A stretch of 40,349 nucleotides of DNA from Candidatus Doudnabacteria bacterium RIFCSPHIGHO2_02_FULL_46_11 (GTDB lineage Bacteria > Patescibacteriota > Doudnabacteria > UBA920 > 2-02-FULL-46-11), in the NCBI GenBank assembly GCA_001779955.1, contig MFES01000001.1, forward strand, positions 1 to 40,349, written 5' to 3'. The stretch's first letter is position 1. The number at the start of each line of letters is the position of its first letter. This document shows, piece after piece, positions 29,428-39,522 of the stretch. The notes under the pieces were generated by a model. That model was not told the DNA's origin. It saw nothing but the letters and a program-made list of their open reading frames with translations, and did not search any database. Both the position numbers and the translations under genes were made by a program.

Positions 29428-30108
29428 TTATAATCGATACCTGCCGTGCTGCTCGTCTGAAGCAACGCGTCCATGCTCGAGCGTGACCACGCGTTTTTTA
29501 ATTGAATTCACCAATTCCCTGGCGTGCGTGGCCAAGACCACGGTCGTGCCGTAATGATTGATTTTAAGAAGGAGTTGAACAATTTCCCAGGCATTTATGG
29601 AATCGAGGTTGCCGGTAGGTTCATCGGCCAAAAGCAATATGGGTTTATGAGCCAGGGCCCGGGCAATGGCCACCCTTTGCTTTTCACCTCCCGACAGTTC
29701 AGCCGGAAAAGAATCAAGCCTGCCCTCCATACCGACAAGCTCTAAAATTTTTGGGACCTCGTGCTCTATTTTACTCGCTTCATACCCGCCCACTTCCATG
29801 GCAAAGGCCACATTTTCAAAAACAGTCTTCTTCGGCAAAAGCTTGATGTCTTGATAAACTACGCCTATCTTTCGCCGAAGGAAGGGCAGATCCTCATTAG
29901 TCAAATCTTTAATGCTCAGCTTCTCGATAAAAACATCACCTTCATCCGGTTTGTCCTGACCGGTCATTAATCGAAGCATTGACGACTTACCGGCGCCCGA
30001 TTGGCCGACGATGGAAATAAACTCGCCGGGCGCAACCTCAAAATCCACCTCATTCAGGGCGCGTATATCGGGCGGATAAATTTTACTCACTTTGTGAAAT
30101 TTCAGCAT
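29428..30108 (-). CDS. ftsE: Cell division ATP-binding protein FtsE
   Basis: Start moved to ATG 30108 (MLKFHKVSKIY). Walker A GQSGAGKSS, signature LSGGEKQR, Walker B LLLADEPT. Confidence 0.85.
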   Translation of the reverse strand: MLKFHKVSKIYPPDIRALNEVDFEVAPGEFISIVGQSGAGKSSMLRLMTGQDKPDEGDVFIEKLSIKDLTNEDLPFLRRKIGVVYQDIKLLPKKTVFENVAFAMEVGGYEASKIEHEVPKILELVGMEGRLDSFPAELSGGEKQRVAIARALAHKPILLLADEPTGNLDSINAWEIVQLLLKINHYGTTVVLATHARELVNSIKKRVVTLEHGRVASDEQHGRYRL

Positions 30109-30244
30109 ATTGTGAGGGACAACCTTACGGCCTATCGGCCTACGTTTTCCCTTCCCAACTCCGCTACGTTCCGTTCCCTCCCTTTCGATAAGGATTGCTC
30201 GCACCGGCTAAGCCGGATGCTCGCAAGTGAAACATTTAAGCGAA
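30109..30244 (-). repeat. GC-rich leader repeat, copy F (upstream of ftsE)
   Basis: Hairpin GCTCGCACCGGCTAAGCCGGATGCTCGC (30197-30224) plus a C-rich tract, same architecture as 36887-37051 and 38600-38783. This is the most diverged copy. Confidence 0.5.
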
Positions 30245-31346
30245 CTAAGGGGTCAGTTTGTTACTTTGTAAATTCTTTTCTATAAAAGTATCCAAATCGC
30301 CGTCTAAAACTTTTTCCACGTCGCTGGTTTCATAATCGGTACGGTGATCTTTGACTAGTTTGTAGGGGTGAAGCACGTATGATCTAATCTGGTTTCCCCA
30401 CTCCGGAGAATGGAATTCGCCGCGGATAGCCTTTTTTTCTTTCTGATGTTCCTCTTCTTGGCGCTTGGCCAACCTCGCTCGAAGGACTTCCATGGCCTTT
30501 TCCTTATTCTGATGCTGTGAGCGCTCGTTTTGAATGGACACTGTAATATTGGTCGGAATGTGCGTTATTCTAATGGCCGAATAAGTGGTATTAACGCTCT
30601 GTCCGCCGTGCCCGCTTGAAGTGTTGGCCTCGATATTCAAGTCTTTTTCGTCTATTTCCAGCTCTTTTTGCGGAATCTCGGGCAGGACCTCGACTAAGGC
30701 AAAAGAAGTTTCTCGGGTGTGCGACGGGTTGTAAGGGCTTAAACGTACTAGGCGGTGCACGCCAGCCTCGTTTTTAAGAAATCCGTAGGCTTTTTCTCCT
30801 TTAACTTCAAGCACTGCGCTTTTAATTCCGGCTTCGCCACCTTCAGATTTGGAAATTAAATCCGTATCCCAGCCCTTCGATTCTGTAAAACGCAGGTACA
30901 TGCGCAAAAGCATTTCCGCAAAATCCTGCGCATCGGTGCCACCGGCGCCCGCGTGTATGGCCAGCACGGCGTTATAATTATCATATTGACCTGTAAAGAG
31001 CGTTCTTAACTCCAGTTCGTTAAATGATTCTTCAAGCTCTGCTATATGCCTTGATAAATCCTGCTCCAGTTTTTCGTCATTTTCTGATAACTTCAACAGA
31101 TCATCCGCGTCGGCGAATTCTTTGTCTAACTTCTGCCAAAACTCTATTTCCTTTTTTAGATTATCGGCAAGTTTTGCCTTTTTGCCCGCCTCATCCTGAT
31201 TCACCCAAAAAATTGGGTTACTCATCTGGTCCTCTATTTCAAGCAGTTTTTGTTTGCTCTGGGCAAGTTCAAAAATGCCCCCTTAGAGCCTCGGCTCTAT
31301 CGCGAAGTTCATTTAGCCTCGCTTTTATTTCTGATACATCCGACAT
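30245..31346 (-). CDS. prfB: Peptide chain release factor 2, requires programmed +1 frameshift
   Basis: Frame 0 reads MSDVSEIKARLNELRDRAEALRGHF then TGA at 31271-31269. The +1 frame continues ELAQSKQKLLEIEDQMSNPIFW... to 30245. Site AGGGGGCATTTTTGAA parallels E. coli AGGGGGTATCTTTGAC. SPF-type SPYNPSH and GGQ (GHGGQSVN) are present. Confidence 0.9.
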
Positions 31347-31613
31347 TTACCCGCTTAAATTTCCTTAACTCGTTACTAAATATAAGTATCTTCCGCCTGT
31401 GCGTAACCATTCCATAATTTTTTTGATTCTCTGGAATTTTTGGCGGGTTATTTGTATTATACCACACCCAGCATATCAGCCCAAATATTCTTGGAATTCA
31501 ATTCGACAAAAAACTTTCTTGCAAATTCGCCTACTGTATTCTCAGTTTTCATTCTTATTTTTTAATCCAAAAATAAACAGGAGAATTATTTGGGATGTAT
31601 TGCTGGGCACATT

Positions 31614-32066
31614 TTAATAGCCAGTACTGCCAAACCCGCCGCGCGTAGGATTATCTAACTGCTCTGTTTCTTCCCATTCAATTCTATCTACGGGCAAACA
31701 GAAGCCTTGAGCAATCCGTTCGCCTCTTTCAACTACCACGACCTCATCGGTGAAATTATAAAAATGCATCGCTATTTCATCGTCCGGCCCGCTATAATCT
31801 CTGTCAATAATACCTAAGCCTTGCGGAATGGACAGGCCCTTGCGCTTAGGCGTGCTTGAACGCGGTACTACAATGAAAACATGGCCGGGCGGGGTAAGCA
31901 CAATTAAATTTGAAGGTATTTTACCAATGCTTTTGGGCGGTATCTCCGTGCGAACCCGGGCATACAAATCCAGCGCCGCCGCGCCAGCGCTCTCATATTT
32001 TGGCAAAGGCAGTGTTTTGTCTATACGCTTAATCTTTACCAGCATTTTGCTCGCCGTATTTTTCAT
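31614..32066 (-). CDS. dut: dUTP diphosphatase
   Basis: 150 aa; AGAAALDLYA, GLGIIDRDYSG, and C-terminal TRGGFGSTG. The internal ATG at 32045 (MLVKIKRI) may be the true start. Confidence 0.85.
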   Translation of the reverse strand: MKNTASKMLVKIKRIDKTLPLPKYESAGAAALDLYARVRTEIPPKSIGKIPSNLIVLTPPGHVFIVVPRSSTPKRKGLSIPQGLGIIDRDYSGPDDEIAMHFYNFTDEVVVVERGERIAQGFCLPVDRIEWEETEQLDNPTRGGFGSTGY

Positions 32067-33669
32067 CTAATTTTCTCTCCTTAACGCGCTGTCTGGCCTC
32101 GCTGTCGGCGCGCGACCAATAGTAGTCGTTGTAATCCGCGAACTTCATCATTTCCGCCCGCCAAGGATATTTTTCGGAAATGGCCTTGTGCATCAACTGG
32201 CAAGCATAACGGTACTGGGGATGGCCCTGCGGCGTAGTGCGCAATTCAATCATATGCATAGCCTCCCTATCATTCATACCTAGAAACCAATGAACTAAAT
32301 TGCCGTGTAAAACGGCATACTGCGCCAATTCTTGATTTTCGGTTGTTATTTTATCGAACAAAGCGTCCGATTTTTCAACACACATCTTAATCTTATCTTC
32401 AAAACCGGCAGCCACCAATTCATCAGGCATAATAAAACCCAACTTAGTGGTGAATAATTGTCTTACTTGAGTGTTCATTCTATGCCTTTGCAGGTCCTTA
32501 TAAACGCCGAAATTTACGAGCGTGTCGAAATTGTACGGGTAACCGTCTTCCAGGGCGCGGCCCGGCCTATCGCGGCGGGTTTTTCGCTCGCCGACATAGG
32601 CCATGATTATTTCTTGTCGGTCTGCCTCCGTCATACCCTCAACCTTTTCTCGAATTTGCTTCATGGAAAGGCTGGCAAAAGGATAAAGCATGGCGGCAAG
32701 GGTCGAGACATCGCGGTCAACAGGCTCAAGCAGATGGACCTCAAGCTTGCCTTTTGGCGCAGGCAGTTCGGCCTGGCCGAATAATTTTTCCGCCAAAGCA
32801 AACATATTTCGGCGGTTCTCGGCCGAGTACTCACTCCGGCGAGCGCGGCGCACATACTGCGGAATAATTTGTGAAGCCGCAGCCATGGTCTTTTCGGCGA
32901 TCTTTTGCAGTTCCGGATTATCGGTACTTAGCAAATAACTGATTAAGCCCTGGTAAAATCGGCCGTTGCCGAACATGCCCACATTGGTCAGCGTGCCGAC
33001 CGGCAGAATGGCCCGCAAAGTATCACAGGCCTTGGTACGCAAATCAATGTTATAGGTTACGCGGAAAGCTTTTTGATCCTTTTCTTCTTTTAGATCACTG
33101 TATTTTTCTTTTTGACCATCGCCGTTAATATCGTATTCTGCTTCAGCCATCGGCTTCAGTTTTTCAAAATACTCTTTCATCGGTTCAACCAAGGAAGCGT
33201 AGGTTTCGAAAATAAAATCCATGGTAGCAACGTACTCCCTGCCAAAAGAGGCCTTGACCAGACAATCGTCGCGCAGATAGCGATAATGGCCGGCCTCCGT
33301 CTTTTGGTCGTAAAAAACGTAGCGAGTAGATTGCTCAATGGGCGAACCGCCGATGCGGCGGTCCTCAATTTCCTTGGCGGCAAGCATGGTTATATTTTCA
33401 AAAGAAATATGCGCGCCTTCGAGCTCACCCACACTATCGTCGCCGTAGGCCACCAAGATGCGTTCGATGAGTTGATCGGCGTGTTTTGGGTCAATCGTCC
33501 CTTCTTTGATAAATTCCTTAAGCAGAACTTCGCGGAAGCCGCCCTTCGCGCGCGAATAGCGGGCATAGGCCGCGCCAGTCATGCCTTCCATGCCTTTTAC
33601 GGCAAAAATATCATCTTCGGCAGAAGTTACATAGTTTTCTAAAAGTTTTTTTTCTTCATCTGTAAACAT
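32029..33669 (-). CDS. thyX: FAD-dependent thymidylate synthase, double-length ThyX form
   Basis: 546 aa; ThyX signature in LQRHRMNTQ plus ELRTTPQGHPQYR in the C-terminal half, and a degenerate ThyX-like N-terminal half. Confidence 0.75.
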   Translation of the reverse strand: MFTDEEKKLLENYVTSAEDDIFAVKGMEGMTGAAYARYSRAKGGFREVLLKEFIKEGTIDPKHADQLIERILVAYGDDSVGELEGAHISFENITMLAAKEIEDRRIGGSPIEQSTRYVFYDQKTEAGHYRYLRDDCLVKASFGREYVATMDFIFETYASLVEPMKEYFEKLKPMAEAEYDINGDGQKEKYSDLKEEKDQKAFRVTYNIDLRTKACDTLRAILPVGTLTNVGMFGNGRFYQGLISYLLSTDNPELQKIAEKTMAAASQIIPQYVRRARRSEYSAENRRNMFALAEKLFGQAELPAPKGKLEVHLLEPVDRDVSTLAAMLYPFASLSMKQIREKVEGMTEADRQEIIMAYVGERKTRRDRPGRALEDGYPYNFDTLVNFGVYKDLQRHRMNTQVRQLFTTKLGFIMPDELVAAGFEDKIKMCVEKSDALFDKITTENQELAQYAVLHGNLVHWFLGMNDREAMHMIELRTTPQGHPQYRYACQLMHKAISEKYPWRAEMMKFADYNDYYWSRADSEARQRVKERKLDEKYGEQNAGKD

Positions 33670-33812
33670 ACCGGGTCAGTAGAGCTTCAATAATCTTATA
33701 GTTTTACTGTTTTCAACAGATTATCGAGGTTTGTTAATTATTCTTTAATATTGCCGAGTAATTTACTGTTTAAATAAGATTTGGGAAAACAGATTGAAGC
33801 TTCACTACCCGG
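33670..33812 (-). promoter_or_regulatory. Structured 5' leader of thyX closed by a long-range helix
   Basis: CCGGGTCAGTAGAGCTTCAATAATCT (33671-33696) pairs with AGATTGAAGCTTCACTACCCGG (33791-33812). The proximal arm ends 1 nt from the ATG. Internal hairpin CTGTT-GAA-AACAG and AACAGTAAA direct repeats. Confidence 0.45.
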
Positions 33813-33874
33813 CATCGCTTCCACAGTTTAACATGCCTATAAAAACAAAAAAACCCCACATTTAGGGTTATTGG

Positions 33875-33907
33875 AAATGGCCCAACCGGAATTCGGCTGG
33901 GCCATTT
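33875..33907 (-). terminator. Hairpin terminator downstream of island G
   Basis: AAATGGCCCAACCG-GAAT-TCGGCTGGGCCATTT. On the minus strand a second small hairpin and a T-run (GGGGTTTTTTTGTTTTT) follow. Confidence 0.6.
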
Positions 33908-33926
33908 TCTTACGGGGCGTTGCGGG

Positions 33927-34259
33927 CTAGCGAGCGAAAGTAGGGTCGTATTTCCGCCTGATCCACTCGCTACGCATGGCAGCTGCTTGCTGGCGATTTC
34001 TCACCAGCTCGTCAAAAGCACGCTGCATATTCGCACAAATACCTGCTGACCTCGGTACTGACCGAGGAGGCGAGGAAATCTGTGTTTGCCTGCGGGCTGG
34101 ACCGCTGGCTACGACACGGGTCGGTTGAACCAACTCCTCGTAAACCAGACCCGATACTTCCCGTCGTACCCGGGATTGCATTAACCCTCCACGTAAAATG
34201 TAACCTTGAATGTTCAGCATCGGCGCCGAACAAAACAATCTGGCGCCTCCGCCAACCAT
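33927..34259 (-). CDS. Island G: hypothetical 110-aa protein (coding status uncertain)
   Basis: Consensus promoter, roughly 70-nt leader, GGGGGG SD-like tract 4 nt before ATG 34259. Third-position GC bias is only moderate by my reading, and a second frame (34012..34272) is also open. Confidence 0.4.
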   Translation of the reverse strand: MVGGGARLFCSAPMLNIQGYILRGGLMQSRVRREVSGLVYEELVQPTRVVASGPARRQTQISSPPRSVPRSAGICANMQRAFDELVRNRQQAAAMRSEWIRRKYDPTFAR

Positions 34260-34336
34260 AGGTCCCCCCCAAGGGCCTATGTCACGCCCTCACCACGAGG
34301 AACGCACAAATGCACGAAGGCACCATTACTGTGTAT

Positions 34337-34365
34337 ATTATACACCTAAAAAGGGATTTTGTCAA
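34337..34365 (-). promoter_or_regulatory. Consensus sigma70 promoter for island G (TTGACA-N17-TATAAT) with overlapping palindrome
   Basis: Minus strand: TTGACA at 34365-34360, TATAAT at 34342-34337. The inverted repeat AAAAGGGATT/AATCCCCTTTT (34349-34374) is centred on the -35 box. Confidence 0.7.
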
Positions 34366-34403
34366 TCCCCTTTTCCACAACCTACCTGCCTGCAGGCAGC
34401 GAC

Positions 34404-34446
34404 AAAAAAACCGCCCGGCCTGCACTTCGTAGCTACGAAGTGGCGG
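34404..34446 (-). terminator. Intrinsic terminator of the kinase/dcd unit
   Basis: Minus strand reads CCGCCACTTCGTAGCTACGAAGTGCAGGCCGGGCGG followed by TTTTTTT. Perfect palindrome CACTTCGTAGCTACGAAGTG. Confidence 0.8.
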
Positions 34447-34478
34447 AGTTGTTGCGGTTTTGATCGCTGCTTAAAAAA

Positions 34479-35030
34479 TTATGAAGTTTTTTTTACTATC
34501 TCATCAATCTGCTTATACAAATCCTCAAGGCTTCCATTATTATCAATGTTAAAGTCAGCTTTTTCCTTCAAAGGAATAATAGTTTGCTCGGTTTCTAAAT
34601 TATGATCTTTGAGAAACTCCTCAAAAGTTTTGTGCTGGTCATCGGTGTTATCATCCCGTGAAATTATACGTTGATAACGAATCTTAGGATCGGCCTCAAC
34701 CCACACTAAATAGAATTTAGAAGAGTTTTTAAGAAATTCGACATCTCCTTCTCGTCGTATACCATCAACAACAAAAATAGTCCTCTTACTTTTTTTTATA
34801 TCTCCGGCCACGGCTTTCGAAAATATACTTTCACCAAAATTTTCTCGTAGAATTTGCGAGAGCTTAACTAGGCTCTGTCGAGTATATTCAACTGATATTC
34901 GATCTAATATATCCCTTAAAATATCTGAAAAACGAATATAGTCAGCATTGTACTTTTTGCTCACATACTTACCGATATCGCTTTTTCCCGAAGCGATTAA
35001 TCCTACTAAACCTATCACTGTTTTATCCAT
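34479..35030 (-). CDS. P-loop nucleotide/nucleoside kinase (dNMP kinase or dephospho-CoA kinase-like)
   Basis: 183 aa; Walker A GLIASGKS near the N-terminus, DGIRR-type motif. Function inferred only from fold class and neighbours. Confidence 0.5.
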   Translation of the reverse strand: MDKTVIGLVGLIASGKSDIGKYVSKKYNADYIRFSDILRDILDRISVEYTRQSLVKLSQILRENFGESIFSKAVAGDIKKSKRTIFVVDGIRREGDVEFLKNSSKFYLVWVEADPKIRYQRIISRDDNTDDQHKTFEEFLKDHNLETEQTIIPLKEKADFNIDNNGSLEDLYKQIDEIVKKTS

Positions 35031-35049
35031 AAAAACGGTTATTATATTC

Positions 35050-36150
35050 TTAACTAGGCTCCCAGGGCTTGAAAAACTTAGCTAATTTTATTCCTTGCTG
35101 AGACTGATAGTTGGATTTAAAAATTCCTGATCCATAGCTCGCGCTGGCCTTCTGCGGTAAGTATTCACACCTAAAGGTAGTTATAAGCTGCCCATGCGAA
35201 AGAAAAATAGGAACTGTACCGATATTACGAATCTCGCAAACTACGCTTGCGCCAGATATAGTACCCTCATCTCCGTAGCCAAAGCCCGGATCAAAAAATC
35301 CGGCGTAATGCGATCGTAACTCTCCATGCTCTTGACGATAAGGAACCATCTCTGCACATACTGTTGGAGGTATACGAACCTTCTCAATAGTGGCTGCTAA
35401 AATAAACTCTCCTGGTTCCAAAAATAAACTACCGGAAGAGTCCGTAGATTTTTCCCTAAAATAAATTTTCGGATCTATTTCATCTTTTATCTTCAAAGAA
35501 ATGGGCTTACCGCCCCTCACTGCAACCAAATCTCTGGGGTTAGATTTTAAGTCCAGATGTAGATGCAAACCTTCGTCGGTTATAAGTGCCTCGATATCAT
35601 CATTCGCCACTAAACGCTCGGTTTTATGCAACTCTTGCATTTGCTCTTTAGTTAAAAACGTTCTTTGCCCATCATAAATCCTCATTTGAGCCAACGCTTG
35701 GCCTGCAAATGCTCTAACCGGGAAACTCTGGGGAACAATAAGCATATAAAGCTTCCCACTGTACCCCGCGGGAATAACATTAAAATCATGGGAACCCCTA
35801 GCCAAAACAACGCAATGCAAATCTATACGGCCGGCTGAACTCTTCGGATTAATATAGCCCCAAACTTTTTCCGGAAACTTTACTGAGGTTTGCAATTCGA
35901 CCAAATACACTCCACCGACCAAAAGAGTTGGCTCGATCACTTCGACATTAAAGTGATTCAAGGTGTAGTCCTCAATAAACTTATCCGGATCAAAACCAGC
36001 GGCTAAATTAGGCATACCAGCCACCTGCCAAACTTTTTGGCCAATAGGTAAATCAATTGAGGACGGCTGCAAAATAGCTTCACCTAAAGGCTCTACAGTT
36101 AAAGAGCCTGTTTTTATATGCTCTTTTATTTCATTATCAGATAAAACCAT
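35050..36150 (-). CDS. dcd: 2'-deoxycytidine 5'-triphosphate deaminase, long tandem-domain type
   Basis: 366 aa; MVLSDNEIKEHI.., SSIDLPIG, INPKSSAGRIDL, and a second dUTPase-like half with GFFDPGFG. Confidence 0.7.
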   Translation of the reverse strand: MVLSDNEIKEHIKTGSLTVEPLGEAILQPSSIDLPIGQKVWQVAGMPNLAAGFDPDKFIEDYTLNHFNVEVIEPTLLVGGVYLVELQTSVKFPEKVWGYINPKSSAGRIDLHCVVLARGSHDFNVIPAGYSGKLYMLIVPQSFPVRAFAGQALAQMRIYDGQRTFLTKEQMQELHKTERLVANDDIEALITDEGLHLHLDLKSNPRDLVAVRGGKPISLKIKDEIDPKIYFREKSTDSSGSLFLEPGEFILAATIEKVRIPPTVCAEMVPYRQEHGELRSHYAGFFDPGFGYGDEGTISGASVVCEIRNIGTVPIFLSHGQLITTFRCEYLPQKASASYGSGIFKSNYQSQQGIKLAKFFKPWEPS

Positions 36151-36202
36151 AAATCTATTATACCAAACTTAAAACCCGCCAAAAGTCGTCGGGTTTTAAG
36201 TT

Positions 36203-36886
36203 TTAGACTTGAACTTTTATGCCGGGACCCATTGTAGAATTAATCGTAACCGTAGAAACATATTGTTTTTTAACCGCGGCGGGTTTGGCCCTGACAACTG
36301 CCTGGTAAAATACCTTAAAGTTCTCGGCCAATTCCGAATTGCCAAGATCTGATTTGCCCAAGGTCGCATGAACGTTTCCGGTATCATCGTTTTTAAAATC
36401 CAGGCGGCCGGCCTTAATTTCTTTAATCGCCTTGGCAATATCCGCGGTCACTGTACCGGTTCGGGGGGAAGGCATAAGCCCTCGCGGACCCAAAATTTTG
36501 GCCACAGGGGCGAGTTTGGGCATCATGGCCGGTTCGGCCACGGCTGTATCGAAATCGGTCTTCTGCGAGCCTTGGATTTCCTTAATCAGTTCTTCCCCGC
36601 CAACCACGTCAGCTCCAGCCTTCTTGGCCTCATCTTCCTTGCCGGCCGTTACAAAAGCGATAACCCTAACTGATTTACCGGTACTGTGGGGCAAGGTAAT
36701 CTGGCCGCGCACAGACTGGTCGCTCTGCTTGGCGTCTATGCTCAAATTGATATGAACTTCCACGCTGCCCTTAAACTTGGTCATGGCGGTTTTTTTGGCA
36801 AGCTCAATAGCCTCTTCGATAGAATAAGCCTTTCCCGCCTCGACTAAACTGTGGGCTTCCTTCAAACGTTTGCTGATTTTAGGCAT
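36203..36886 (-). CDS. rplA: 50S ribosomal protein L1
   Basis: Start moved to ATG 36886 (MPKISKRLKEAH..), because the 45-codon track extension is translated from the leader repeat. VRVIAF, GADVVGGEELI, LGPRGLMPSP. Confidence 0.9.
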   Translation of the reverse strand: MPKISKRLKEAHSLVEAGKAYSIEEAIELAKKTAMTKFKGSVEVHINLSIDAKQSDQSVRGQITLPHSTGKSVRVIAFVTAGKEDEAKKAGADVVGGEELIKEIQGSQKTDFDTAVAEPAMMPKLAPVAKILGPRGLMPSPRTGTVTADIAKAIKEIKAGRLDFKNDDTGNVHATLGKSDLGNSELAENFKVFYQAVVRAKPAAVKKQYVSTVTINSTMGPGIKVQV

Positions 36887-37051
36887 AAGTATTTCCTGGG
36901 GTGGGAAAACTCCCGTTTTCCCCCTCCCACCTACCCCCTTTCCTCCACATCGCTCGGGCTGGCAAAGCCAGACCCTCGCTGGGGCTAAAATTGGGGCAAA
37001 TGAGTGGTGATAATGAAGCAAATCTCTTTGCCTCCCACCTGGTTAGCTTGT
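36887..37051 (-). repeat. GC-rich leader repeat, copy R (upstream of rplA)
   Basis: Hairpin 1 GGTGGGA..TCCCACC at 36900-36931, C-rich CCCCCTTTCCTCC, hairpin 2 GCTCGGGCTGGCAAAGCCAGACCCTCGC at 36952-36979. Near-identical blocks occur in 38600-38783. Confidence 0.75.
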
Positions 37052-37414
37052 TTAAACTTGGTTCTCTTTACGGATTACTGACCAGTGATAGGCAAAAAGC
37101 GGCATGCCGACAATGAGTTGGGCTAAGGCTTGAGCCGCCTGCCTTTCGCGGTCAGCTCGGCGCTGCTGATTTTGCCTGTCTTCTTCTTCAGCCTTGCGCG
37201 CGGCGATTTCCTCGTCGGTTAGTACGCGCTCCTCGCCCACCTTGTCAGTCGGGATTCTTTTTTCAACATAAACCGGATAAGTATCAGCATTTTTAAAGAT
37301 AAAAACCTTGAGGCCCAAATCTATAAAACTGACGCTGCCGGTTATAACCAAAACCAGACCGACGGTCGCGAACAAGTAGAGATATACTTTGCGAAGTGTT
37401 AAATTAAAAGCCAT
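37052..37414 (-). CDS. Small membrane protein with charged coiled region, inserted between rplK and rplA
   Basis: 120 aa; N-terminal TM LYLFATVGLVLVITGSV, E/R/Q-rich middle, C-terminal TM LIVGMPLFAYHW. Confidence 0.55.
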   Translation of the reverse strand: MAFNLTLRKVYLYLFATVGLVLVITGSVSFIDLGLKVFIFKNADTYPVYVEKRIPTDKVGEERVLTDEEIAARKAEEEDRQNQQRRADRERQAAQALAQLIVGMPLFAYHWSVIRKENQV

Positions 37415-37514
37415 ATAGTCAATTTTTCAATTCACAATTTTCAATTTTCAATTAATTATTCAATTGAGAAATTAAGAAATTGTTTAGAAATTAATAATTA
37501 GAAATTCAATAGAC
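37415..37514. repeat. AT-rich intergenic repeat, copy 1 (downstream of rplK)
   Basis: Shares a core of roughly 72 nt, TTTCAATTC(A/G)CAATTTTCAATTTTCAATTAATTATTCAATTGAGAAATTAAGAAATTGTTTAGAAATTA, with 37941-38053. Confidence 0.85.
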
Positions 37515-37940
37515 CTAGTCTTTGATTTCTATTCCCATTGAACGAGCAGTACCGGCAATAATCTTTTCCGCCTGCTCAAGGTCGTTGGCGTTAAGATCCT
37601 GCATTTTCTTCTCGGCAATCTCGCGCAGCTGGGTTTTGGTAATTTTACCGACCTTATCTTTTAAAGGGTTGCCCGAGCCTTTAGGCACGCCGGCCGCTTT
37701 AATCAAAAGGGCGGAGGCCGGAGGGGTCTTTAAAACGAAACTAAAGGTTCGATCCTCGAAAATGGTAATTTCCGCGGGCACGACAGTATCGCCCATTTGC
37801 GCAGTCTGCTGGTTGAAAGCATCAACGAACTCCTTGATATTAATACCGTGGGGGCCAAGGGCGGTACCAACCGGCGGCGCAGGTGTGGCCTTTCCGGCCG
37901 CGATCTGCACTTTTACTATTGTCTTTACTTTCTTAGCCAT
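37515..37940 (-). CDS. rplK: 50S ribosomal protein L11
   Basis: 141 aa; [27 protein letters not shown]...FN. Confidence 0.95.
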
Positions 37941-38053
37941 ACAAATAAATTTTCAATTCGCAATTTTCAATTTTCAATTAATTATTCAATTGAGAAATTA
38001 AGAAATTGTTTAGAAATTAGAAATTAATAATTAGAAATTAATAATTAGAAATT
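37941..38053. repeat. AT-rich intergenic repeat, copy 2 (downstream of nusG), with extra GAAATTAATAATTA units
   Basis: Direct comparison with 37415-37514: one mismatch in the core, and a different number of terminal short tandem units. Confidence 0.85.
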
Positions 38054-38599
38054 CTAGACTTTCTTCACTTGAAGGAAGTCTAGTTCCACCGGGGTCTCGC
38101 GGCCGAAAATGTTAACCATCACGCGTACCTTGCCCTTCTGCTCGTCAATTTCCGAGACTTTGCCTTCATAATCCTTGAATGGCCCGTCCACAATTCTAGT
38201 CAAATCATCCACGGCAAACTCTATCTTGAATTTCGGCTCTTCGGTGCCCATGCGCTTGGTAATGGATTTTATCTCTTCATCGGAAACCGGCGTCGGAATA
38301 GTGCCGGAACCGACAAAACCGGTGACGTTCGGCGTGTTTCGCACGACGTACCAGGAATCATCGGTAACAACCATTTCCACCAAAACATAACCGGGGAAAA
38401 TTTTCTCTTCCACCGTGGAGCGCTTGCCGCTTTTGACCTTGATCTTTTTCTCCTTCGGCACCATGACATTGAAGATTTTATCTTCCATGCCCATGGATTC
38501 GATGCGCTGTCTCAAGTTAAAAGCTACCGCGTCCTCGTGGCCTGAATAGGTGGAGAGCGCGTACCATCGTTTCTCACCAGTACTAATTTGTTTAGGCAT
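38054..38599 (-). CDS. nusG: Transcription termination/antitermination factor NusG
   Basis: 181 aa; WYALSTYSGHE NGN domain and C-terminal KOW (GPFKDYEGKVSEIDEQKGKVRVMVNIFGRETPVEL). Confidence 0.9.
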   Translation of the reverse strand: MPKQISTGEKRWYALSTYSGHEDAVAFNLRQRIESMGMEDKIFNVMVPKEKKIKVKSGKRSTVEEKIFPGYVLVEMVVTDDSWYVVRNTPNVTGFVGSGTIPTPVSDEEIKSITKRMGTEEPKFKIEFAVDDLTRIVDGPFKDYEGKVSEIDEQKGKVRVMVNIFGRETPVELDFLQVKKV

Positions 38600-38783
38600 A
38601 ATTTACAACTGGGGTGGGAAACTTCCGTTTCCCCCTCCCACCTACAGCGCCTTGGGGCTCCAAAGGGTTGCCGGAGGCAACAACTTCTCGCTGCAAGGTT
38701 CCGCCGAAGGCGGGTTCTTACCCCCTTCCTCTATACGCTCGGACTGGCATAGCCAGATCCTCGCTGGGATAACTGAAAGTTTA
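38600..38783 (-). repeat. GC-rich leader repeat, copy N (upstream of nusG), with a 74-nt extra insert
   Basis: Hairpin 1 at 38613-38642 and hairpin 2 at 38737-38764 match copy R. Insert 38646-38719 carries hairpins GTTGCC-GGA-GGCAAC and CCGCC-GAA-GGCGG. Confidence 0.75.
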
Positions 38784-39338
38784 TTAATCCAACAAAACTA
38801 TTAAAGCGGTTATAATTATCAATATTTCTAAATAAAAAGTAAAGTGTTTGGCGTAGTCCTCAAGTAAATACCTCAACCAGTAGTCAACAAACCCCTTGGC
38901 CTCATGCACCCGCGCCTCATACTTTTTGTTGGCTAAGGCATAAACTTCTTTTTTGTTAAACGGCCAGAGCCACATTACTCCCCATTCAAGACTGTCTAAA
39001 ATAAAATGTGACCAGCCACCCAGCCAGATAAGCAAACCGAACGTTTTCCAAAAAGAAGTGCCGGCAAGCAGAAATATCGCGAGGCCCGCAATCAACCACA
39101 CAGCCGGCGCATGGCTTATGTATGTTCGGTGATTATTGTCGTATTCATCTACCCTAGCCAACCGGAAGCCCCGCAGGCGGTTGAAGGCGTAAAACATATC
39201 CAGGTCCGGCGCAAAACCGACCAGAGCTCCCATCAAGAGTAGTTGATTAACCTCTGCGGACGCGAAACTGTATGGTAAAAAATTTAAAAGAACTTTGCCG
39301 ACCAGATAGCCTCCCGCAATATGTCCCGGCGGCAGCAT
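38784..39338 (-). CDS. DUF457/YdjM-type membrane-bound metal-dependent hydrolase, inserted between secE and nusG
   Basis: ATG 39338 (MLPPGHIAGGYLVGK); the track starts at TTG 39350. Multiple TM segments with conserved H/D residues. Confidence 0.6.
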   Translation of the reverse strand: MLPPGHIAGGYLVGKVLLNFLPYSFASAEVNQLLLMGALVGFAPDLDMFYAFNRLRGFRLARVDEYDNNHRTYISHAPAVWLIAGLAIFLLAGTSFWKTFGLLIWLGGWSHFILDSLEWGVMWLWPFNKKEVYALANKKYEARVHEAKGFVDYWLRYLLEDYAKHFTFYLEILIIITALIVLLD

Positions 39339-39339
39339 T

Positions 39340-39522
39340 CTATAACACAAATCTTTCCAAGACCTCGCTTAGGCCATAATCTATGGCGCCGAGAATCACC
39401 GCCACAAAAAGCGAAATGGCGATAACGTAAAGCGTCATCTTAATAGTCTGCTGGCGTGAAGGCCAAATAACCTTGGTAAGCTCGTTCTTAACGTCTTTTA
39501 TGAAATGGATTGGATTGGCCAT
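39340..39522 (-). CDS. secE: Preprotein translocase subunit SecE
   Basis: Start moved to ATG 39522 (MANPIHFIKDVKNELTKVIWPSRQQT..) with a single C-terminal TM. The track extension covers the GC hairpin 39548-39564. Confidence 0.8.
   Translation of the reverse strand: MANPIHFIKDVKNELTKVIWPSRQQTIKMTLYVIAISLFVAVILGAIDYGLSEVLERFVL

Follow-up and report, generated by a model that had tools for sequence, protein, structure and literature searches.

The stretch of DNA analyzed here, called the window in the following, comprises 40,349 nucleotides (nt) of contig MFES01000001.1 (positions 1 to 40,349, forward strand) from Candidatus Doudnabacteria bacterium RIFCSPHIGHO2_02_FULL_46_11 (assembly GCA_001779955.1). 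The assembly of this genome (G000) has a size of 862 kb in 38 contigs with a G + C content of 46% and is 93% complete. Within the window, three copies of a structured, G + C-rich repeat, termed F, R and N, are located on the minus strand directly 5′ of ftsE, rplA and nusG, respectively. The sequence blocks quoted for them in a preliminary description, which was made from the letters alone, were all found, as was the common layout, consisting in transcript direction of a hairpin P1 (previously called hairpin 2), a purine tract and a hairpin H1 (previously called hairpin 1). When a profile and a covariance model were derived from the copies, they were recovered with E-values of 1e-10 to 1e-17, and hence they are not chance similarities. 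F, R and N belong to a non-coding, modular repeat family that is dispersed in Patescibacteria and is not a private element of three genes.

The core of copy R (36896-36984, minus strand) is matched by the covariance model with 90 bits (E 1.4e-17). It contains P1 (36951-36981), the purine tract GGAGGAAAGGGGGTAG (36931-36946) and H1 (36900-36931), and is separated from the rplA start codon ATG at 36886 by an A/T-rich tail (36887-36899). Copy N (38609-38769, minus strand; 54.6 bits, corresponding to positions 1393-1555 of stretch L106) contains P1 at 38736-38766, the purine tract at 38719-38732 and H1 at 38613-38642, followed by a tail (38600-38612) that reaches to the nusG ATG at 38599. R and N are almost identical across P1, the purine tract and H1 and constitute subtype A. 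Copy F (30110-30245, minus strand; 58 bits) belongs to subtype B, being diverged with the layout kept, as described before, and having an H1 with an extra inner hairpin. It fills the entire gap between the stop codon TAG of a release factor gene (30245-30247) and the ftsE ATG at 30108. Its parts are an AT-rich 5′ extension (30227-30245), P1 (30195-30226), the purine tract (30167-30187) and H1 together with the inner hairpin (30110-30159). The 5′ end of F, GTTCGCTTAAATG, is also found in a copy elsewhere in the genome (C30:41415), and its 3′ half is 98% identical to an antisense copy on the same contig (C30:31700-31748).

Some details of the preliminary description had to be revised. The distance of 13-14 nt between H1 and the ATG applies to R and N (13 nt), but not to F, which reaches to about 2 nt from the ATG. 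For R, the proposed extent of 36887-37051 includes the core, but positions 36985-37051 lie outside of it. The block quoted for the first hairpin is present, but P1 is longer and has an outer helix and tandem mismatches. False N-terminal extensions caused by the repeats could be confirmed in the list of open reading frames (ORFs) for rplA (36203-37021) and ftsE (29428-30204).

An extra insert in copy N was noticed correctly; it has a length of 76 nt (38643-38718, minus strand), is flanked by GTA on both sides and represents a nested copy of a different, second repeat family. Copy N is therefore a nested insertion and not a longer variant of the repeat. The insertion point is located within the purine tract, GGGGGTA/GG (the slash marks the junction), which is kept uninterrupted in R as GGGGGTAGGTGGG. 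The layout of the second family is GGGGGTA/AGAAC, a hairpin, GCNGCGAGA, another hairpin and GGAGCCCCAAGGCGCNGTA/G, and its target looks like GGGGGTA/G. The insert is homologous to repeats that bracket a tiny GIY-YIG ORF at C2:14868-15071 (region C2:14650-15260) of the same genome, and short matches to it occur in about 10 contigs. A tRNA gene on contig C2 has had its 5′ end (TTCGGGGGTA) triplicated by the second family.

The genes adjoining the three copies are all encoded on the minus strand. Downstream of F lies the gene of an ftsE-like ABC ATPase (29428-30108; ABC_tran, E 5e-36) with the true start MLKFHKVSKIY, and upstream the gene of a peptide chain release factor (30245-31225) with PCRF and RF-1 domains. 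Copy R is followed by rplA, encoding L1 (36203-36886; PF00687), and preceded by an ORF with a DUF5671 domain (37052-37414; PF18920, E 2.5e-9) located between rplK and rplA. Copy N is followed by nusG (38054-38599; PF02357) and preceded by the gene of a YdjM-family membrane protein (38784-39350; PF04307), the stop codon of which lies 15 nt before the element.

Three further observations concern the surroundings of these copies. On the minus strand upstream of the R core (36985-37051), the sequence GGTGGGAGG...CACCAC looks like part of an H1 that points the same way and may be the remnant of another copy. An A/T-rich direct repeat of 98 nt with 90% identity is present at 37409-37506 and 37935-38032; it arose by duplication of the sequence 5′ of rplK together with the first codons, and the second copy precedes the DUF5671 ORF. 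Just past the high end of the window, an intein is annotated (Pfam Intein_splicing; L138:1-698) in gyrB, which lies upstream of secE-ydjM-nusG.

Fold, distribution and placement of the repeat family

The complete unit has a length of about 90-160 nt, contains no ORF and is strongly asymmetric. It is composed of a short A/T-rich 5′ end, P1, a linker, a purine tract similar to GGAAAGGGGAGG, zero to three optional GC hairpins and H1 with the consensus UUGGRAGGGGAAAACC...GGUUUUCCCCUCCAA. P1 is built from an outer helix, tandem G.A/A.G mismatches, 3 bp, a bulged U, 5 bp and a triloop; the mismatches (conserved CGAG...CGAG) are positioned between the outer helix and the main stem, and the tip has the form GGC-UUY-GCC. 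The unpaired CGAG...CGAG and the purine tract are conserved, and the conservation of H1 and the purine tract equals that of P1.

Pairing was evaluated for 112 matches (101 distinct) from this genome and its relatives. In total, 89.8% of the pairing cells are occupied by standard base pairs, compared with 65.2% in shuffled and at most 54% in slid controls; these figures lean towards structure, as the alignment was fitted to the model, although the gap to the slid controls is still large. In the same 101 distinct copies, double changes were found at 22 of the 22 pairs, with 551 doubly changed cells versus 173 expected. The fold is thus strongly supported and has been kept by compensatory changes over about 100 copies in many genera. 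No match to an Rfam family was obtained over the window at the gathering scores, and with E-values of up to 10 over positions 30000-38900 nothing better than chance appeared, including one chance match of 16 bits. A literature search revealed no publication on this family, nor on miniature inverted-repeat transposable elements (MITEs) or structured repeats in Patescibacteria.

The scan of the genome and its relatives with a covariance model, as suggested in the preliminary description, identified about 37 copies in the genome of the window and further copies in the class and in other families of the Patescibacteria. The same set of about 37 was obtained by BLAST, by an iterated nhmmer profile and by the covariance model (R1); at least two additional degraded copies, before rplV and secY, were recognized by eye. 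Altogether, the family occupies about 0.5% of the genome. At the order level, 14 of 81 relatives carry the element with 1-32 copies each. At the class level, a broader model (R2) yielded full-length matches in 38 of 146 genomes, and with the same model 19 genomes of other Patescibacteria families (a few percent) were found to have full-length matches; genomes with the element contain from 1 to more than 26 copies in this wider set. Within one order, the copy number varies from 0 to more than 30, and a single genus spans 0 to 11; the relative G013 has 9-11 copies. Carriage by phages was also considered: a P1 pattern matched four viral contigs, none of which was confirmed by the covariance model.

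The position of the copies follows a clear rule. In about 45 examined sense copies, the H1 end lies 0-14 nt before the start codon of a gene in the same orientation; in about 28 antisense copies, a gene on the opposite strand has its stop codon or 3′ end at a distance of 0-8 nt from H1. Sense and antisense copies occur at a ratio of about 1:1 in the genome of the window and of about 60:35 overall. Sense copies in this genome precede rplA, nusG, ftsE, rpsT, nusB, rpsB, rplW, rpsE, rpsQ, rpsH, rplC, rpsL, ndk and others, those in relatives nusA, rpsL, rplN, efp, dnaX, nrdR, mraZ and a tRNA gene, and some antisense copies outside the class abut the 3′ end of a tRNA or of the 5S rRNA. A plain selfish repeat had been expected to be random in both orientation and position; the orientation is indeed mixed, but the H1 end always abuts a gene boundary, i.e., the position is highly constrained.

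In seven cases, two units form a head-to-head doublet between genes of the window's genome, and five of the seven are located within the S10-spc ribosomal-protein operon. On the mRNA strand, such doublets fold into an imperfect foldback of about 90 bp with an H1 hairpin at each end.

In many sense and antisense copies alike, P1 is preceded by an A/T-rich box (TAAAT/TATAG) at a distance of 5-12 nt. This box could be read as a promoter and H1 as a 3′ end, in which case each copy would be an independent small RNA gene of a multicopy, trans-acting family. The polarity of the unit, which is defined whatever the neighboring genes are, and the short U run after H1 in some copies outside the class are compatible with such a gene. 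However, only 10-20 nt remain between the P1 hairpins of head-to-head doublets, so that there is no room for two promoters, and promoter-like matches in a promoter and terminator scan of the region were at background (19 versus 14.6 expected). Moreover, a U tract is missing after most H1 hairpins, and H1 acting as a terminator in the sense copies of the ribosomal-protein operon would end essential transcription. Independent small RNA genes are therefore regarded as highly improbable.

Insertion and copying into short spacers

The possibility of a mobile repeat, raised in the preliminary description with MITEs and REP elements as models, gained support from the dispersal of the approximately 37 copies, their occurrence in both orientations, the patchy presence in relatives, a filled and empty site and near-identical unlinked copies. 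The filled and empty site is the rpsQ-rplN spacer in two genomes of one genus. It has a length of 134 nt in G013 and of 22 nt in G023, with flanks that are 91-93% identical; the extra DNA in G013 is exactly the element, with TA at both sides. Conversely, the element is present at dnaX in G023 and missing there in G013. Near-identical copies are exemplified by the doublets before rpsH (contig C27) and before ndk (contig C29), which differ at two positions in about 190 nt and have unrelated flanks.

Absence at orthologous positions is also the rule for nusG and rplA. When 80 related nusG-rplK-rplA loci (8.5 kb per locus) were compared, 78 turned out to be without the element. It precedes nusG in only one of the 80 (L008) and rplA in none, and most of the spacers have a length of 4-30 nt. 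The copy before nusA, on the other hand, is orthologous in four genomes of three genera, which have the upstream flanks in common and show compensatory changes in P1. Some copies are thus old and have been maintained in place. Among contigs with exact protein matches, in which insertion polymorphism was sought, the element was carried identically in seven of the seven informative ones. A second survey for filled and empty sites in genus g27 provided no usable pair, since the flanks were too diverged. Taken together, the data support a small insertion element without an ORF that was inserted or copied into short spacers at gene boundaries.

Further observations were made at the insertion sites and at other repeats. 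In genus g4, the 22-nt rpsQ-rplN spacer is a hot spot for insertions (L129, L213, L214 and L217): this family is present in G013, two different palindromic, MITE-like inserts occur in G079 and G040, and the spacer is empty in G023. The rpsL leader of G023 (L242) is taken up by a third structured, G + C-rich repeat (CACATTCACACTTGGGCCGAG...GGTTAAGCGTGAATGTGAGAGGAG), which is also located upstream of a tRNA gene in G079 (L210, G079:C5:80600-80800), beside a P1-like hairpin. Several contigs of G023 and of other assemblies end inside copies. In the Logan assembly of SRR3989342, contig L144 joins the upstream flank of the copy at C1:48.9k to nusG via 37 nt of H1 common to both, and is probably an assembly chimera at the repeat.

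The preliminary description had also considered a shared translational or attenuation control of ftsE, rplA and nusG. In its general form, this would be a dedicated cis-regulatory RNA (a riboswitch, ribosomal-protein leader, attenuator or thermometer) that responds to one ligand or protein and co-regulates rplA, nusG, ftsE, rpsT, nusB and nusA. The strongly conserved, covarying fold with its conserved unpaired nucleotides is in line with such an RNA, as is the majority of sense copies being located before translation and transcription genes, the maintenance of the nusA copy in three genera and the pairing of a GGGAGG-like arm with a CCUCC-like arm in H1, as known from switches that sequester the Shine-Dalgarno (SD) sequence. 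A dedicated nusG or rplA leader has to be rejected due to the 78 empty loci, and the nusA copy is the only one conserved over three genera. About 35-50% of the copies are antisense to the adjacent gene, lying behind stop codons, and the element also precedes unrelated genes and flanks tRNA and 5S genes. In addition, the copy number ranges from 0 to more than 30 within the order, sister genomes have filled and empty sites, and no Rfam family matched. A dedicated regulator of the three genes is thus not supported, and a cis-regulatory RNA of this kind appears very unlikely in general. Of the earlier interpretation, which is therefore partly supported, the mobile repeat is the part that stands.

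Predicted leader function and the question of the mover

The purine tract of the element is complementary to the 3′ end of the 16S rRNA, which terminates in GGATCACCTCCTTTC (contig C6) and keeps the anti-SD sequence CCUCC. The predicted duplex has a mean energy of -11.2 kcal/mol in sense copies compared with -7.4 kcal/mol for shuffled tracts. Ordinary start regions of this genome reach a mean of -2.6 kcal/mol versus -2.3 kcal/mol after shuffling. The genome is SD-poor, with GGAG, GAGG or AGGA at -22 to -3 in 13% of 433 well-anchored starts. The filled and empty site at dnaX may provide an example of a changed leader: in G013, the ATG follows 8 nt after an extended -10 box, TGgTATAAT (L241), an arrangement that suggests a leaderless mRNA. 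In G023 (L117), about 157 nt including the element lie between the TGgTATAAT box and the ATG, which would result in a leadered transcript.

The best explanation, held here with moderate confidence, is a mobile, modular repeat family, the fold of which is kept by selection and the sense copies of which would serve as a generic leader or stabilizer. Since most spacers in the genome are tiny, an inserted element must be transcribed together with its neighbors. A sense copy would thereby become a 5′ untranslated region (UTR), in which the exposed purine tract could pair with the 16S 3′ end. In a mostly SD-less genome, the downstream cistron would gain a standby or loading site for ribosomes or a 5′ stabilizer similar to STAB-SD, and insertions beside start codons might thus be tolerable or even useful, also within the ribosomal-protein operon. 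Antisense copies and doublets would place stable hairpins or the foldback of about 90 bp after the upstream cistron, as possible 3′ stabilizers or RNase III sites. Such a generic leader or stabilizer function is plausible from the sequence features.

Several results weigh against this explanation. With regard to mobility, transposase searches were made for Y1_Tnp and DDE_3 only. Y1_Tnp/RAYT (PF01797) is absent from the element-rich genomes G000, G076, G013 and G079 and also from G023, and PF01797 is present in many genomes without the repeat; DDE_3/IS630 is likewise absent from the element-rich genomes. Inspection of the aligned ends showed no terminal inverted repeats in single units. There is one clean filled and empty pair only, and gene conversion could account for some of the near-identical copies. 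Direct repeats of 5-8 bp flank a subset of the copies (GATCTA at C1:48.9k, ATTTAG, TTAGTT and TTTATTTT); compared with permuted controls, a position-restricted test for target duplication was marginal, with 34 copies versus 25.9 +/- 4.1 expected (P ~0.04), and an unrestricted test found no enrichment of long target duplications. With regard to function, antisense copies match the anti-SD sequence just as well as sense copies do, with no decay of the SD-like tract, and the complementarity may thus be a trait of the family that has nothing to do with translation. The excess of G.U over A.C (31:14 in sense versus 20:18 in antisense copies) is a trend that is not significant. Copies also precede tRNA genes, which speaks against a purely translational role, and the co-transcription of copies with their neighbors, 30S binding and processing are deduced from the sequence.

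Concerning the mover, no copy with a coding insert was seen. The ends of single units have the form CCCAGCGAG...CCCACCCCAG or TTCTCCGAG...CCTCCAAAGAA, and only the head-to-head doublets are palindromic as a whole. As Y1_Tnp is absent from the element-rich genomes, RAYT/IS200 was rejected as the mover; the TA flanks pointed to an IS630/Tc1-type mover, which was rejected due to the absence of DDE_3. Besides UvrC, ten tiny GIY-YIG ORFs (open frames of 84-120 amino acids) were found in the genome of the window, on contigs C38, C10, C36, C19, C5, C2 (two), C35, C20 and C29. A link between these genes and the family was rejected as well, since none of the ten adjoins a match of the covariance model or nhmmer.

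These candidates bear on another explanation, in which P1 is a single-stranded DNA hairpin similar to REP or SRM sequences, recognized by a host nuclease or recombinase (RAYT or a tiny, Ssn-like GIY-YIG protein) that spreads or uses the repeats, the rest of the unit being a passenger. P1 forms an imperfect hairpin, which has an extrahelical T and is bordered by conserved, non-palindromic sequences, and it occurs singly and in inverted doublets like REP, BIME and REPIN sequences. The ten GIY-YIG ORFs are in accordance with this, and Ssn nucleases recognize oriented hairpin repeats in hundreds of copies (PMC11893778). The insertion of a GIY-YIG-linked repeat into copy N also fits, but the link to GIY-YIG holds for that second family. 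Apart from the missing Y1/RAYT and the missing adjacency, G013 encodes only one small GIY-YIG protein despite its 9-11 copies of the element. H1 and the purine tract are conserved as much as P1 and are therefore not passengers. A P1-specific nuclease as the basis of the family is thus considered unlikely.

The mobile family with a generic leader role can be extended to a bolder proposal, which is put forward tentatively and is itself rather doubtful. The repeat would be a non-autonomous "plug-in leader" with the RNA itself as the selected product, i.e., a portable, structured 5′ UTR. Beside the start of an SD-less or leaderless gene, the purine tract would recruit the 30S subunit and the hairpins P3 and H1 would bring the tract close to the AUG; in reverse orientation, the element would serve as a 3′ hairpin cap for the upstream cistron. 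The phylum-wide persistence would then be due to the signals for translation initiation and mRNA stability that the element carries, and not to a transposase.

Relation to known repeat families and implications

The BOX elements of Streptococcus pneumoniae, like RUP and SPRITE, are small, non-coding, modular multicopy repeats with the structure boxA-boxB(n)-boxC. They form stable hairpins, are located in intergenic regions near genes and are co-transcribed; to our knowledge, no transposase of their own has been identified. The family described here is similar in being small, non-coding and multicopy, with optional internal modules, hairpins beside genes and no transposase of its own identified. 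This likeness is one of features; a relationship in sequence is not known. In contrast to BOX, the family is distributed phylum-wide in Patescibacteria with extensive compensatory change, has its 3′ end no more than about 10 nt from a start or stop codon and contains a purine tract strongly complementary to the anti-SD sequence.

REP, BIME and REPIN sequences of E. coli and Pseudomonas are oriented, imperfect hairpins associated with RAYT transposases; they are transcribed and stabilize upstream mRNA. An oriented imperfect hairpin, conserved flanks and the occurrence as singletons and inverted doublets between operon genes (seven pairs in the genome of the window) are common to both. Unlike REP and BIME, the family is found in genomes without RAYT, and its unit is three to four times longer, with a second conserved hairpin and the purine tract. 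The Correia/NEMIS elements of Neisseria and other MITEs have a size of 100-160 bp, are multicopy, gene-adjacent and co-transcribed, form foldback RNA that is cut by RNase III and duplicate a TA target. The family resembles them as a small, non-coding, multicopy and gene-adjacent repeat with occupied and empty sites, and TA flanks were seen at the one clean filled and empty pair. It differs by the strand asymmetry, the lack of visible terminal inverted repeats in single units and of a related transposase, and the weak evidence for target duplication. The family lacks the defining features of REP/BIME and MITEs, namely a RAYT gene, terminal inverted repeats and a cognate transposase.

Two further systems are similar in single aspects. 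STAB-SD of the Bacillus thuringiensis cry3A gene is an SD-like sequence located far upstream in the 5′ UTR, which pairs with the 16S 3′ end without initiation at that position (PMC4113751). The predicted exposed tract of the repeat is likewise SD-like, can pair with the 16S 3′ end according to the duplex energies and lies upstream of where initiation truly takes place; however, STAB-SD is a single short motif, whereas the repeat is a mobile, structured cassette with predicted 30S binding and stabilization. Ssn nucleases are small GIY-YIG proteins acting on NTS/SRM sequences (Chenal et al., 2025, PMC11893778), i.e., on repeated hairpins that are oriented and have conserved flanks without palindromic symmetry. 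Oriented hairpin repeats with many copies around genes and host genomes encoding small GIY-YIG proteins are common to both systems, but the sequence of P1 differs from NTS/SRM and no GIY-YIG gene is flanked by the family. The Ssn/SRM model fits the second family nested in copy N better. The family is distinguished by its strongly covarying fold and distribution over the phylum, by the fixed position of its 3′ end at gene boundaries and by a tract that is highly complementary to the anti-SD sequence although the genomes are poor in SD motifs.

For genome annotation, the family explains recurring artefacts, namely false N-terminal extensions as well as contig breaks and chimeras at repeats, and a covariance model is at hand for a structured RNA family without an Rfam entry. 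The genomes of Patescibacteria are among the smallest and most streamlined that are known, yet about 0.5% of the one studied here consists of the element, which is even located between genes of the essential ribosomal-protein operon. Should the element be nothing but selfish DNA, even Patescibacteria genomes sustain an old, phylum-wide repeat family without a recognizable transposase. If the RNA is functional, it would represent a transferable module for translation initiation and stability in organisms where most genes lack Shine-Dalgarno sequences, and would bear on how the ribosomes of the Candidate Phyla Radiation (CPR) find start codons.

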